NCBI GenBank assembly: GCA_948443845.1
Contig: CAOJUE010000008.1
Location: forward strand, 1,822 to 65,821
Source of the DNA: an uncultured Eubacteriales bacterium
GTDB lineage: Bacteria; Bacillota; Clostridia; TANB77; CAG-508
Direction of reading: 5' to 3'
DNA length: 64,000 nt
Positions within the stretch are counted from its first letter, which is position 1, and every line of letters begins with the position of its first letter. The position numbers were made by a program, and so were the translations under genes. Positions 31,427 to 64,000 of the stretch are shown piece by piece. The notes below the pieces were generated by a model that searched no databases, was not told where the DNA came from, and worked only from the letters and a program-made list of their open reading frames with translations.

Positions 31427-31502
31427 TCGAGGTGTAGCGCAGTTGGTAGCGCGCGTGGTTTGGGACCATGAGGTCGCAGGTTCGATCCCTGTCACCTCGA
31501 CC
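31427..31502 (+). tRNA. tRNA-Pro (anticodon UGG), CCA encoded
   Basis: Hand-folded 76-nt cloverleaf: acceptor CGAGGTG/CACCTCG, D arm GCGC-AGTTGGTA-GCGC, anticodon arm CGTGG-TTTGGGA-CCATG, T arm GCAGG-TTCGATC-CCTGT, then ACCA. Confidence 0.92.
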
Positions 31503-31761
31503 ATTTTTTGCCCTTTTTTAGGGAAATTTAAAAGAATTTATAAAAATTCAAAACTTACAAATTATGCTATTTTTCAATAGAAATTGAAAATAGCATAATT
31601 TTTTTGCGTTCTGAAAAATTCCTAAAAATATGTCTATTTCTTTCAAGAAAAAGTTTCTGTAAAATTTTACAAAAATTTCTGTAATTTTCTGTAAAACGTT
31701 TTTCCTGAAATTTCAATCATTTTAAAGTTCTTCAAATAAAACTGAAAGGAGAACTGATTTT

Positions 31762-32307
31762 ATGGACTTTATCCCCTACAAATCTAACGAATGTTTTGAA
31801 CATTTATATTATCAAATACCAATGGAGTTGTTTTTCAATCCAAAATATAAAAATAAACTTAATTCGGATAGTAAAATTCTATATGGATTTCTGCTAAACC
31901 GATTAACCCTATCTGCTAAAAATCATTGGTGTGATGAAAATGGCAATGTTTATCTTATTTTCACTCGAAAAGAAGTGCAGGAACTGCTGAATTTATCAGA
32001 TAAAACTGCAACAAAAGCGTTTAAACAATTAAGTGAATGCAAGTTGATATATGAGAAAAAACAAGGTTCTGCAAAACCAAACTTAATTTATGTTGGGAAA
32101 ATACAACATGATGAAAATTTTACAAAGCTGATTCGTAAAAATTACGATTCAAGAGTCGTAAAATCTACGATTCATGAACCGGAAAATTTACGACCAAGTA
32201 ATAACTATAATAATTATATTAATAAAGGAAATAAGCAACATAAATTTTCAAACTTTGAAGAAAGTAATTACAGTAATATTGACTGGAATTTACTATATGA
32301 TAATTAA
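31762..32307 (+). CDS. replication initiator protein A, RepA_N family
   Basis: FEHLYYQIPMELFFNPKYKNKLNSDSKILYGFLLNRLTLSAKNHWCDENGNVYLIFTRKEVQELL is the RepA_N pattern of Firmicutes plasmids and integrative elements. Confidence 0.8.
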   Translation: MDFIPYKSNECFEHLYYQIPMELFFNPKYKNKLNSDSKILYGFLLNRLTLSAKNHWCDENGNVYLIFTRKEVQELLNLSDKTATKAFKQLSECKLIYEKKQGSAKPNLIYVGKIQHDENFTKLIRKNYDSRVVKSTIHEPENLRPSNNYNNYINKGNKQHKFSNFEESNYSNIDWNLLYDN

Positions 32308-32329
32308 AATTTAAAGGAGATTTAGAATT

Positions 32330-32707
32330 ATGAATGATAGAAAAGTAAATGAAAATGGAATTGAATATATAAAAGTTGGTGATTATTATATGCCGAACTT
32401 AAAAGCACCAGAAGATGTAAAAATTTCTAAATTAGGTAAATATGGAAGACTGAGATTACGTTATCTTAAAGAAAATAAAAAGGCTGAATATACGATTTTA
32501 TTTATGGATAATAAATTACAAAATCACCTGATAGAAATAGACAAAATAGCAAATAAAAGATTGGATTTGCTAATGAAACAACTAACTGAAAAAGAACATA
32601 TTACAGAAGAATTAAAGGCAGAAAATCAGCTAGAATGGGTCGGTAAGATGAATAATATTAAAAATTGTGCTGAAGAAATGATACTAAAAGAATTAATTTA
32701 TGTGTAA
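32330..32707 (+). CDS. TnpV-like transposon-associated protein
   Basis: GIEYIKVGDYYMPNLKAPED...LGKYGRLRLRYLKENKKAEY...NHLIEIDK is the TnpV family pattern. Confidence 0.7.
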   Translation: MNDRKVNENGIEYIKVGDYYMPNLKAPEDVKISKLGKYGRLRLRYLKENKKAEYTILFMDNKLQNHLIEIDKIANKRLDLLMKQLTEKEHITEELKAENQLEWVGKMNNIKNCAEEMILKELIYV

Positions 32708-32721
32708 AGTGAGGTAAAAAT

Positions 32722-33042
32722 ATGGAAGATTATGAATTGTTTAATTTAGATTCTACGGAGTTATATGAATGCATTAGTAGTGCAAAAATAAAATTAAAAA
32801 ATACGAATGCTAATTATAAAGAATTATATAGAAAGCTTGAGAAAATTAAAGATAAATTCCCTAATATTCGTGGTATTTTAGAAGATGAACAGCATTCTGA
32901 ATTGACATTAGAAGAAAGCGAAAATCTGCTAAAAGCTATCAATTTATATCGTAATATTTTGCAAATGGAAGAACATGAAATTTTCTTTTTAGGTGGCAAA
33001 GAAACCTATAATTTCTTTAAGAAAATTGACATTTTAAAATAA
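32722..33042 (+). CDS. hypothetical protein
   Basis: 106-aa ORF with a good SD (GAGGTAAAAATATG). Confidence 0.5.
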   Translation: MEDYELFNLDSTELYECISSAKIKLKNTNANYKELYRKLEKIKDKFPNIRGILEDEQHSELTLEESENLLKAINLYRNILQMEEHEIFFLGGKETYNFFKKIDILK

Positions 33043-33103
33043 AAAAATGGTTGAAAAAGATACAAGTTTTATACAATTTGTATCTTCTTTCAGGCAGTAT
33101 TAT

Positions 33104-33201
33104 GAAAGATTTTGAGAGAGTACTCTTGAAAAATCTTGAATAGAGCAAGCAACGTATTTGTACTCACGTTACAAATACACCTATTGAATGGGACAAGTCC
33201 C
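33104..33201 (+). promoter_or_regulatory. candidate oriT of element 1 (cluster of inverted repeats upstream of mobC)
   Basis: AAGATTTT...AGAGTACTCT...AAAATCTT (33106-33137), GTATTTGTA-CTCACGT-TACAAATAC (33154-33178), GGGACAAGTCCC (33190-33201). Confidence 0.4.
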
Positions 33202-33241
33202 AAACCCTTTTAAAATTTTTATAGAAAGTGAGAGAAAATTT

Positions 33242-61946: not shown

Positions 61947-61964
61947 GATTTATCTCCTCTCACA

Positions 61965-62451
61965 CTAATTTTTAATGCTTTCTATAAACTTCAAAATTAC
62001 TGTTTGAATAGATAAAATCATTTTTAAAGTTTCATCATTCAAATTTTTATTATCTTCTTTAGATAACTTAAAAGGTATATTTATATCTTTTAAAAATGTG
62101 AATTTGCTAGAAGGTAAATCATTATAATTAAAACTTGACCTTTCTAAAAAAGTTACATATTCAACAGCTTGTGCTTTAGATATTGATTTAAAATCTTTAT
62201 CTTCTTTACAAACTATAATAATGTTTCCTTTTATTGTTTCAGGTATATTTAAAAATTCTCTTGTAATTGATATATTAGGTTTTAAATTATCTCTATTTTT
62301 CTTACAAACAATAACTATATCTTTATAGGGTATTTCTTCAATTTTACCGTCCTATTATTTCTTCAAATTCAGATATATCATTTTTTATCTTTTGAAGTGC
62401 TGGTGATTTTCCAACTTCTTTATAAACAACTATAATCTCATTAGTTTTCAT
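61965..62451 (-). pseudogene. small protein gene (DUF3846-like by eye) split by a 1-nt frameshift near 62348
   Basis: MKTNEIIVVYKEVGKSPALQKIKNDISEFEEIIG, then a frame change, then GKIEEIPYKDIVIVCKKNRDNLKPN... to IESIKN. Confidence 0.5.
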
Positions 62452-62626
62452 CAGAATCACCACTTTCACTATTTAGATTTATTAGATATATTTTGTATGC
62501 AAAATCATCTAAATATTGCTTGTTTTTAGGGTCGTCCAAACTTATTACATTTTTAGTAAATAAATTATCAGACTTTTTTAATTTTCTTTTTTTATCTTTA
62601 GTTGTTGGTTTTGATATTTTTCTCAT
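62441..62626 (-). CDS. hypothetical basic/acidic small protein
   Basis: 61-aa ORF whose stop overlaps the next start. Confidence 0.4.
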   Translation of the reverse strand: MRKISKPTTKDKKRKLKKSDNLFTKNVISLDDPKNKQYLDDFAYKIYLINLNSESGDSDEN

Positions 62627-62875
62627 TTTTAAATCTCCTAAAATATATTTAGGTTACCGGTAGCCTAGATAGGCTTAAGCTTGATTTTATGATACAACGA
62701 TTTTAAAAGATAAAACGTAAATGATTAGATAAAGTTAATAAAAAGCATAAATGATTAAAAATGATTAAATTTTTAATTTCCAAAAATCTTTAAATATCTT
62801 GAAACATAAGAAAAAGCGAACGCAAAATTTAATTTTTACGTTCGCTAATAAAACAACTTTTAAGATTTTAAAAAT

Positions 62876-63577
62876 CTATTTTTTAAATATATCTAAATAC
62901 AAAGCATAGTTCTTTTTCAAGTTTTGTAATTCACTATCTGTTGGCTTTAATGCTTCAAACATTTCGTCAGTAAATTCTATATCTTTTTTACTAAAATAAC
63001 ATTTTCTTATACTAGGCTCATATTGAGCATTAGTACCAAAATATGCACCTAACATTAGCTCATCTGTTCCATAGCATACCCTAATAACCATTTCGCATAT
63101 ATCTAATCTCATTTGATTAGGTTTGTAATTCTCATAAGATAAAAATGCGACCATATCATCAGCTAACATATAACCTGTAGAACAAATTGATTTATCATGA
63201 GAATTTACAAAGTCAACTTCAATTCTATCTGCTTTTTCTCTAATTTTTATAATCCATTTATCTTTATTAAACTTTTTTGTGTTAGGATTATATGCGTTAA
63301 AATAAACATATAGAGTATCTGTTCCAAAAGGATTTTTTACATTCTTCTTATTAGAAAAAGCATGTTTTCTATTAAATAAATCTGATTCATATATACCCAA
63401 CTCATCACAAATTACATTGATTTCTTCAGCATTAGGTAATAACTCTCCACTTTCAAATCTACAAATTGTCGCTCTGCTTTTGTTTATTAAGTCTGCAAGA
63501 TTTTGTTGACTTAATCCTTTTTCATTTCTATATTTTCTGATATTTTCTCCAAATATCTTTGCATCAAAATTTGACAT
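62876..63577 (-). CDS. XRE-family HTH regulator with a ~170-aa C-terminal domain (cI-like layout)
   Basis: Start at MSNFDAK, 5 nt after GGAGG. IRKYRNEKGLSQQNLADLINKSRATICRFESGE. Confidence 0.8.
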   Translation of the reverse strand: MSNFDAKIFGENIRKYRNEKGLSQQNLADLINKSRATICRFESGELLPNAEEINVICDELGIYESDLFNRKHAFSNKKNVKNPFGTDTLYVYFNAYNPNTKKFNKDKWIIKIREKADRIEVDFVNSHDKSICSTGYMLADDMVAFLSYENYKPNQMRLDICEMVIRVCYGTDELMLGAYFGTNAQYEPSIRKCYFSKKDIEFTDEMFEALKPTDSELQNLKKNYALYLDIFKK

Positions 63578-63696
63578 ATAAACCTCCAACATTTCCATAC
63601 AAAATATATAATAAAAACACTAATATTATTATAACATTATTTGACATATTTTGCAATTTATCAGAAACCGCTTTACCGCTTAACAACTGTGATACA

Positions 63697-63725
63697 TTGA
63701 ATATTGGCATAAAATATGTTATAAT
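63697..63725 (+). promoter_or_regulatory. strong sigma-A promoter with extended -10, divergent from the XRE gene
   Basis: TTGAAT (63697-63702), 17-nt spacer ending in TGT, TATAAT (63720-63725). Confidence 0.6.
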
Positions 63726-63731
63726 ATAAAT

Positions 63732-63998
63732 ATAAAAACCTATTTATAGGTGGATTTTCAATTTCTTATGAATATCTGCCCAAGCAATGCTTGATTGTAT
63801 ACATTAGTAAAAGTCGAGCATTGAGGGCTCGATTATTTATAAGAATTCCGCCAAGTTGGAATTTCAAATGTATGCAATATAGATAGAGACTTAAGGAAAG
63901 GATGGAATCCCAACAATGAAATTCTCAAGAGAAATGTGCCCACGGAAGTGGCGGATGTTAATCCAAGTGGGGAAAACATTTTTCCCCATTCTTTATTT
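63732..63998 (+). ncRNA. candidate structured non-coding RNA (about 260 nt), class unknown
   Basis: No convincing ORF. Local hairpins TCGAGC-ATTGAGG-GCTCGA (63813-63833). Possible long-range pairing of CCGCCAAGT with AGTGGCGG. Terminal GGGGAAAA-CAT-TTTTCCCC (63969-63987) followed by a T-rich tract. Confidence 0.4.
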
Positions 63999-64000
63999 AC

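Follow-up and report, generated by a model that had tools for sequence, protein, structure and literature searches.

Three integrative mobilizable elements in tandem at the 3′ end of a tRNA-Pro(UGG) gene in an uncultured gut Clostridia bacterium

The window analyzed here is a stretch of 64,000 nucleotides from contig CAOJUE010000008.1 of an uncultured Eubacteriales bacterium. A single tRNA-Pro(UGG) gene lies at 31428-31503 on the forward strand (ARAGORN tgg call; Rfam tRNA score 67 bits), and positions 31504 to at least 64000 very probably hold three integrative mobilizable elements (IMEs), apparently unrelated to one another and designated E1, E2 and E3, which are inserted in tandem at the 3′ end of this gene. 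The gene was the sole match in an Rfam scan of the window and is intact; sequence inspection identified a sigma-70-like promoter (TTGACA-17-TATAAT) upstream at ~31260-31295. Its last 12 nt, TCACCTCGACCA (31492-31503), form core copy 1 and the attL of E1. A second exact copy of TCACCTCGACCA at 41298-41309 (+) is a hybrid site that serves as attR of E1 and attL of E2. A third copy at 54886-54897 has one mismatch, with C at 54886 for the T of the tRNA; its remaining 11 nt, CACCTCGACCA, are exact at 54887-54897 (+) and form attR of E2 and attL of E3. An earlier note, made from the letters of this window, had described the same recurrence, and both downstream copies were located as it stated, the first copy being misplaced by one base (31491-31502). 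Its segment sizes of 9.8 and 13.6 kb agree with the measured lengths of 9,794 bp and ~13,577 bp. By chance, 0.01 core matches were expected, and 0 of 100 dinucleotide-preserving shuffles gave three. In addition, G+C content changes from ~0.31-0.37 in the chromosomal half left of the tRNA gene to 0.21-0.32 in the array.

E1 (31504-41297) is a 9.8-kb IME delimited by homology: copies in other hosts and other chromosomal contexts share 93-96% nucleotide identity with it, starting exactly at 31504, the base after the tRNA CCA, and ending exactly at 41309. Its replication and mobilization module (31762-34847, all on the + strand; Pfam and PHROGs matches) encodes a RepA_N protein (31762-32307), which also matches DnaD-like helicase-loader families in PHROGs, followed by TnpV (32330-32707), a DUF6664 protein (32722-33042), a MobC/NikA-like protein (33188-33631) and a MobA/VirD2-type relaxase of family PF03432 (33579-34847). 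A variable cargo slot (34852-37950, - strand) contains small open reading frames (ORFs) and two candidate defence proteins identified by family matches: a 327-aa protein of candidate family PDC-M14B (34876-35859, -) and a 270-aa DUF3800 protein of candidate family PDC-M04A (36828-37640, -). The recombination module (37918-41147; Pfam) consists of a DUF6076 protein (37918-39120, -), an excisionase-like HTH_17 protein, Xis (39393-39584, +), and Int1, a 467-aa tyrosine integrase oriented towards core copy 2 (39744-41147, +). The right arm (41170-41297, +) carries arm-type repeats and an inverted repeat, and the arm-type repeats TTCTGTAAA and AAAATAGCAT are present in both this region and the left arm (31525-31700). 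When E1 was compared with its relatives, only the cargo slot was replaced and the two backbone modules were conserved; OLD-family ATPase, HEPN, radical-SAM or patatin genes occupied the same slot in the relatives.

E2 (41310-54886) is a 13.6-kb IME defined by homology and arm repeats. Its left end is a copy of the tRNA terminator (aaaaataccctattttagggtattttt), and the repeat arrangement TGCATTAAAA-N-TACATTAAAA occurs at both ends (~41415-41490 and 54800-54835). The core genes (42987-50891, all on the - strand; Pfam) encode Int2, a 492-aa integrase oriented towards core copy 2 (42987-44465), a SpoVK/CbbX-like AAA+ protein (44625-46040; absent in relative L036), a MobA/VirD2-type relaxase of family PF03432 (46724-48019), MobC/NikA (47980-48285), a 595-aa protein (48631-50418) and an HTH_17 protein (50643-50891). 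Accessory genes (51273-54730; Pfam) include an ECF sigma factor (51273-51830, +), a putative anti-sigma factor (51811-52980, +), a GNAT protein (53090-53713, -) and a Fic protein with a winged helix-turn-helix domain (53732-54730, -), which matches the SoFic defence model (E 1e-50). Between attL and the int gene, 41595-42938 (-) holds a 92-aa ORF and a 360-aa protein of the LPO_1073/Vpar_1526 family (41633-42715, -; family match). This region is absent in the E2-like relatives L036-L038 and represents an added cargo insert, since int abuts attL in L037 and L038.

E3 begins at 54898 and runs past the window end at 64000, so that only its attL lies within the window. Its left arm (54898-55192) contains four copies of TTGTTAGAY and is followed by a gene set on the - strand. 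The cargo gene (55193-57685) encodes an 830-aa AAA-like ATPase of the Spaf_1101 family (SMC_N/AAA_21; 843 bits against a cut-off of 475), which is related to TrlF and to the anti-phage protein Ppl. The remaining genes encode DUF6809 (57830-58102), a MobV relaxase (Mob_Pre, PF01076; 58123-59091), DUF3848 (59103-59591), an 89-aa ORF (59929-60198), the 480-aa integrase Int3 (60195-61637), a 99-aa ORF (61647-61946), a 61-aa ORF (62441-62626) and an XRE regulator (62876-63598), with Pfam matches for the two DUF proteins, relaxase, integrase and regulator.

The gene calls proposed earlier for the three segments were nearly all confirmed by Pfam. Two of them need qualification. The DUF927 helicase of E2 corresponds to the 595-aa protein, whose DUF927 match is present but below threshold (E 0.0034), and the excisionase of E3 corresponds to the 99-aa ORF, which has no family match in Pfam or PHROGs; therefore, that label was a positional guess only.

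Each element encodes its own site-specific recombinase of family PF00589 (E 2.5e-27, 9.9e-26 and 2.4e-25) and its own relaxase, of family PF03432 with a MobC/NikA accessory protein in E1 and E2 and of family PF01076 in E3. The strong Pfam matches of the relaxases (E 3e-38, 7e-37 and 4e-42) agree with the proposal that these are mobilizable elements. Direct repeats derived from the target flank E1 (12 of 12 nt) and E2 (11 of 12 nt), the ends match the homology limits, and an attR for E3 is seen in relatives. The segments also correspond to tRNA-targeting islands in the Islander-type definition, as a regenerated tRNA-Pro borders one side and the displaced 3′ fragment the opposite side. They do not qualify as integrative and conjugative elements (ICEs), because no family of the type IV secretion system was matched in Pfam. 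VirB4, VirD4/TraG and FtsK-like proteins were all absent from the scanned ORFs of at least 60 aa in 31.5-64 kb, a set in which the 76-, 83- and 87-aa ORFs of E1 and the 61-aa ORF of E3 were not all Pfam-scanned. The expected lack of type IV secretion, coupling-protein and phage structural genes thus held for the scanned ORFs. One or more segments might instead be a prophage remnant or a satellite resembling phage-inducible chromosomal islands, as integrases, XRE repressor-like and Xis-like proteins, replication proteins, defence cargo and a tRNA location are all shared with satellites. We regard this as extremely improbable, given the relaxase in every element and the fact that no virion, capsid, terminase, portal, packaging or capsid-redirection family was matched in Pfam or PHROGs.

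To place the array in context, we compared it with about 200 fetched loci (labels L###). In other genomes, tRNA-Pro(UGG) carries E1-, E2- or E3-like elements singly or in other combinations, and relatives of all three are bounded by the tRNA-Pro core, in agreement with the predictions that the elements are separable and share one core. E1-type relatives were collected by look-up of contigs with the exact E1 Xis protein, whose sequence is indexed in 174 blocks of the collection (238 blocks for the 99-aa protein of E3). E1-like relatives lie directly at tRNA-Pro(UGG) in L008 and L010-L013. The E1 right end invariably reads ...GAGGTGTAGCC followed by the core TCACCTCGACCA, after which at least six unrelated sequences were found. 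These include chromosomal genes (L012, L013, L017), an E3-like element (L008) and other IMEs (L009-L011, L014). In L013 and L017 an E1-type element stands alone and housekeeping genes follow; in L012 a short integrase-less segment separates it from the chromosomal genes; and in L009 and L016 two different E1-type elements are in tandem. A rule that E1 always lies nearest the tRNA was rejected, as an E1-like element follows another element in L124 and L125.

E2-like elements adjoin tRNA-Pro directly in the species-representative metagenome-assembled genomes (MAGs) L037 and L038, and their int gene is 91-93% identical in DNA to that of E2. The far end in L037 reads ...acgacaggcgCCACCTCGACC, after which the terminator hairpin of the E2 left end occurs again. 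A 418-nt stretch of E2 (46056-46472), which is upstream of the AAA+ gene and lies beside int in L036, is 81% identical to the DNA just after the core in L016 (11969-12353) and L017 (4102-4486). With no integrase adjoining it there, this stretch looks like what is left of a decayed E2-like element. In L018, L019 and L021-L025, an E3-like element comes directly after tRNA-Pro, with 97% identity over 57787-64000 of the window (6.2 kb). In such relatives the core recurs at the far end, 9.9-16 kb away, reading ...GCGAGGTTCACCTCGACCA, TYCCTAGAY arm repeats are found at both ends of the element in L018, and only small cargo genes lie in the part corresponding to the sequence beyond the window end.

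These distributions bear on the possibility that the array is one composite island, acquired and inherited as a block, whose internal cores are relics of accretion in a donor. The same E1-E2 and E2-E3 joins were present in every same-population contig that reached the junctions (including L015), the exact Int2 protein is recorded solely in the E1-E2-E3 configuration, and whole composites could also be transferred (PMC5704250). However, the E1-E2-E3 combination was found in no other genome among the loci compared, in which each element occurred alone or with other partners, and the array is not an indivisible block, since in L008 an E1-like element is directly followed by an E3-like element without E2. 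In addition, distances to the nearest relatives are unequal (93-96% identity for E1, about 88-95% for E2 and 93-100% for E3), which fits separate histories of the three elements. Acquisition as a single block is therefore considered unlikely, and stepwise accretion of separate IMEs is the preferred reading.

Within the source population, six independent metagenome contigs show the junction of chromosome, tRNA and E1, and others show those of E1 with E2 and of E2 with E3. All contigs that carried the exact flanking protein and reached the tRNA had E1 beside it. The flank itself offered no empty-site comparison. Homologs of the flanking gene, which encodes a 615-aa protein, were found in 55 species-representative genomes (best, 88% nucleotide identity) with no tRNA-Pro, core or integrase beside them, and they are hence uninformative in this respect. 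Comparison of this DnaB_C-like gene region (29150-31427) with L065-L119 showed that the gene does not adjoin tRNA-Pro there. In the same MAGs, tRNA-Pro is located elsewhere, after tRNA-Arg(UCU). That related species keep tRNA-Pro at a different place implies a rearranged tRNA-Pro locus in the lineage of the window. Related MAGs bear the labels "uncultured Clostridium sp." or "uncultured Clostridia bacterium", and more distant matches were in Candidatus Scatovivens. An apparent divergence at L003:1-46 was dismissed as Illumina adapter sequence (AGATCGGAAGAGC...) and is not biological.

Several observations weigh against an array of three complete and mobile elements. A fourth core is not within the window and is expected from relatives only; by analogy with L018 and L062, it is predicted beyond 64000, at least ~1.3-1.7 kb further. 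Towards this side, the E2-E3 junction was absent from the genome collection, the exact Int3 protein is not on record, and searches with the XRE and cargo proteins of E3 gave short contigs only. Neither an occupied/empty polymorphism nor an excision junction was seen in the source population, in which the array looks fixed, and the junction of an excised E1 circle (attP) was absent from the JGI metagenome and IMG/VR collections. No origin of transfer (oriT) was identified in the elements, and no conjugative helper element is in view. Finally, the left arm of E3 (55050-55160) has TTGTTAGAY at all four positions where L018 (16270-16420) and L008 (12050-12200) have TYCCTAGAY. Despite these differing arm repeats, Int3 is identical to the L018 integrase at 474 of 479 positions, including the whole N-terminal region. 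Because the left-arm repeats mismatch those of near-identical relatives, E3 may be either a natural recombinant, in that case perhaps mismatched and unable to excise, or an assembly mosaic.

In the assembly version, E3 beyond ~57.9 kb would be a chimera in which its own left arm and cargo had been fused with the backbone of another E3-type element that was more abundant in the sample. The arm mismatch is one point in its favour. Independent short-read contigs with the 830-aa cargo gene also all end at ~57899, a short way into the shared backbone. Moreover, the backbone is 93-97% identical to L018 except for the region of int and the 99-aa gene (60.4-62.2 kb), which is 99.5-100% identical. A natural recombinant, however, would produce an identical mosaic pattern. 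Intact E3-like elements have exactly this gene order, their left arm aligns with that of E3 over 236 nt, and the first 113 nt of the backbone were confirmed by independent contigs. GTTAGA-type arms occur elsewhere at tRNA-Pro (L205, L213, L215 and L218, and on both sides of a 580-bp mini-element in L204). On balance, an assembly artefact appears improbable, and we continue to treat E3 as the third element of the array.

Int1, Int2 and Int3 are collinear over their whole length and share pairwise identities of 26-31% in the alignment, and the catalytic R...HxxR...H...Y columns were invariant in both integrase alignments, so the strong divergence outside the catalytic motifs noticed previously was borne out. 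The closest solved structure to Int1 is the chain "Int protein" of PDB 6EN0/6EMZ/6EMY (E 3e-16, residues 143-442), which we take to be the Tn1549 Int. The N-termini of Int1 (39744-39960) and Int2 (44300-44465) contain a cysteine-rich insert with CxxC...C motifs, and Int3 is without it. Judged by these motifs, the insert may be a zinc-binding addition to the arm-binding region.

The same core is used by other integrases. A fourth family (ORFs of ~440 aa; L039-L058), 34-35% identical to Int2, was found on it, as were the lineages of L126, L129-L134, L176 and the Int-454 type of L009 and L016. Thus, at least five further lineages, and at least eight in all, use 9-12 nt of the tRNA-Pro(UGG) end. 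In a neighbor-joining tree without support values, in which targets were assigned solely from 11-20 nt direct repeats of tRNA 3′ ends, Int3 grouped with 48-54%-identical integrases at tRNA-Glu, tRNA-Gly and tRNA-Met, and the nearest neighbor of Int2 sits at tRNA-Leu. The fact that the closest relatives of Int3 target other tRNAs suggests that integrase lineages converged on the tRNA-Pro target. In other species, some tRNA-Pro genes had no related integrase within 4.6-5.8 kb downstream (L121, L122). Integrase-less segments were also detected between two cores. One, at L012:11153-13372 (2.2 kb), encodes a DUF4097/Band_7 protein; another is the mini-element at L204:1097-1685, which has a single small ORF between its two GTTAGA-type arms. 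Both look like cis-mobilizable remnants.

The identity block shared by attL and attR is 9-12 nt long. Strand exchange would take place inside this block, since the bases directly to its left differ from the tRNA in the sites of family 4, L126 and the L129 type. The same applies to other heterobivalent integrases, which need an identical overlap of ~7 bp (general framework of the mv4 study, bioRxiv 10.1101/2023.11.06.565760). E2 and E3 carry a terminator-like hairpin directly after the core, which implies that, once integrated, they provide a terminator as well as the tRNA 3′ end.

A second hairpin was found on the other side of the displaced core. The right end of E1 contains GAGGTGTAGC, equal to tRNA positions 2-11, 6 bases before the displaced 3′ acceptor arm. 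The resulting inverted repeat, TGAGGTG-tagcct-CACCTCG (41285-41305), would form the hairpin UGAGGUG-uagccu-CACCUCG with a free ACCA tail and, as RNA, has a minimum free energy of -11.2 kcal/mol (z = -3.7). Equivalent inverted repeats are present in the Int-454, E3-like, family-4, L124 and L126 lineages and, in shifted position, in the L129 group. Sites left of the displaced core, in which the left arm of the repeat matches the tRNA-Pro 5′ acceptor arm, include L009:2250-2278, L018:6688-6705 (-), L044:11404-11424, L126:11521-11548 and L129:11428-11452. Of 46 distinct contexts, 18 had GAGGT no more than 27 nt from the displaced core, compared with 0.01 expected per site, and the hairpin spacer ranged from 2 to ~16 nt. 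The hairpin was absent from E2, L176 and relatives targeting other tRNAs, including the closest relatives of Int3.

Three ideas about this feature were examined. A canonical C-O-C′ core with central crossover was rejected, as it does not accommodate the variable spacer, nor the bases between dyad and block, which are not tRNA-derived in L129-type, L126 and family-4 sites; the hairpin is not where crossover takes place. A Tn916-like, heterology-tolerant crossover in the spacer is unlikely, because the spacer of the element would tend to be replaced by tRNA sequence; TAGCCT is kept in 13 E1-type sites, with TAACCT in one. Covariation with acceptor variants of the tRNA was not seen either, as GAGGTG is kept opposite CGCCTC in L133 and the hairpin does not follow the CGCCTCG acceptor variant. 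Its presence in at least four integrase clades suggests either convergent acquisition or exchange between elements using this hotspot. It is conceivable, though we think it doubtful, that this hairpin, which lies on the integrase-distal side of the core, belongs to the working att site of tRNA-Pro-exploiting elements specifically, acting either as a mimic of the tRNA-acceptor minihelix (in RNA or transferred single-stranded DNA) or as a cruciform recognized in intasome assembly.

Taken together, the sequence features suggest how the array most probably arose by site-specific recombination. Each element encodes its own heterobivalent tyrosine integrase and has its own arm-type repeats. Its attP holds the final 11-12 nt of the tRNA, to which E2 and E3 add a copy of the tRNA-terminator-like hairpin. 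Integration would regenerate an intact tRNA-Pro and leave the previous 3′ end beyond the element. Of the two cores thus formed, one would serve as the target of the next element, which accounts for the hybrid att sites at 41298 and 54887. For transfer, these IMEs would depend on mobilization by a conjugative element in the same cell, as relaxases are present and a mating pore is absent. The RepA_N initiator of E1 and a possible primase-helicase of E2 could maintain the excised circle. The elements may still excise, and the known behavior of these families suggests mobilization in trans.

This locus is a convincing further example of tandem IME accretion. Arrays of IMEs whose integrases are only distantly related but have one specificity, along with decayed remnants that lack int, have been described in streptococci and other bacteria, for instance IME_Sag2603_tRNAlys with a decayed ICE in Streptococcus agalactiae and the accretion of ICESt1/ICESt3 (PMC5704250). 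As in those arrays, tyrosine integrases with less than 30-35% identity share one target, and the elements lie head to tail with hybrid att sites, have their own relaxases and lack a mating pore. Decayed remnants likewise occur in related arrays, such as the integrase-less segment of L012, the mini-element of L204 and the E2-like remnant of L016 and L017. The present array differs in consisting of three apparently complete IMEs with no ICE, in its tRNA-Pro(UGG) target and in its host, which belongs to an uncultured lineage of low-GC gut Clostridia. A literature search for the element families RepA_N-TnpV-relaxase-DUF6076-Int, Int-relaxase-DUF927-like and MobV-Int-XRE did not find them.

Two other systems are comparable. 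Elements of the Tn916/Tn1549 group have the integrases with the closest solved structure to Int1 and also a short inverted repeat beside the recombining sequence; unlike the elements described here, which use one specific tRNA end with a crossover probably inside an identity block, Tn916-type elements insert with low specificity and have heterologous coupling sequences. NBU1 of Bacteroides encodes an integrase and a single Mob protein and inserts into the 3′ end of tRNA-Leu via a short common core. NBU1-type elements resemble those at tRNA-Pro in being small, in having a tyrosine integrase and a common core of ~11-14 bp at the very 3′ terminus of a tRNA gene, and in needing a conjugative helper element (compare PMC5704250), and they differ in phylum, relaxase families and target tRNA.

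The understanding of such arrays is unchanged by our analysis, and the acceptor-stem hairpin is the sole lead that could raise the interest of the locus. What the array provides is a cleanly delimited integration hotspot of uncultured gut Clostridia, at which the integrase lineages gathered on the same 9-12 nt include some whose nearest relatives use other tRNAs. Most of the cargo in the variable slots is of defence type (SoFic, the Spaf_1101/Ppl-like ATPase, PDC-M14B and PDC-M04A), and the elements act as interchangeable vehicles for such genes. Their exact boundaries, arm repeats and cargo slots could aid annotation of these very common elements, and the hotspot offers material for studying the convergence of integrases on one target.

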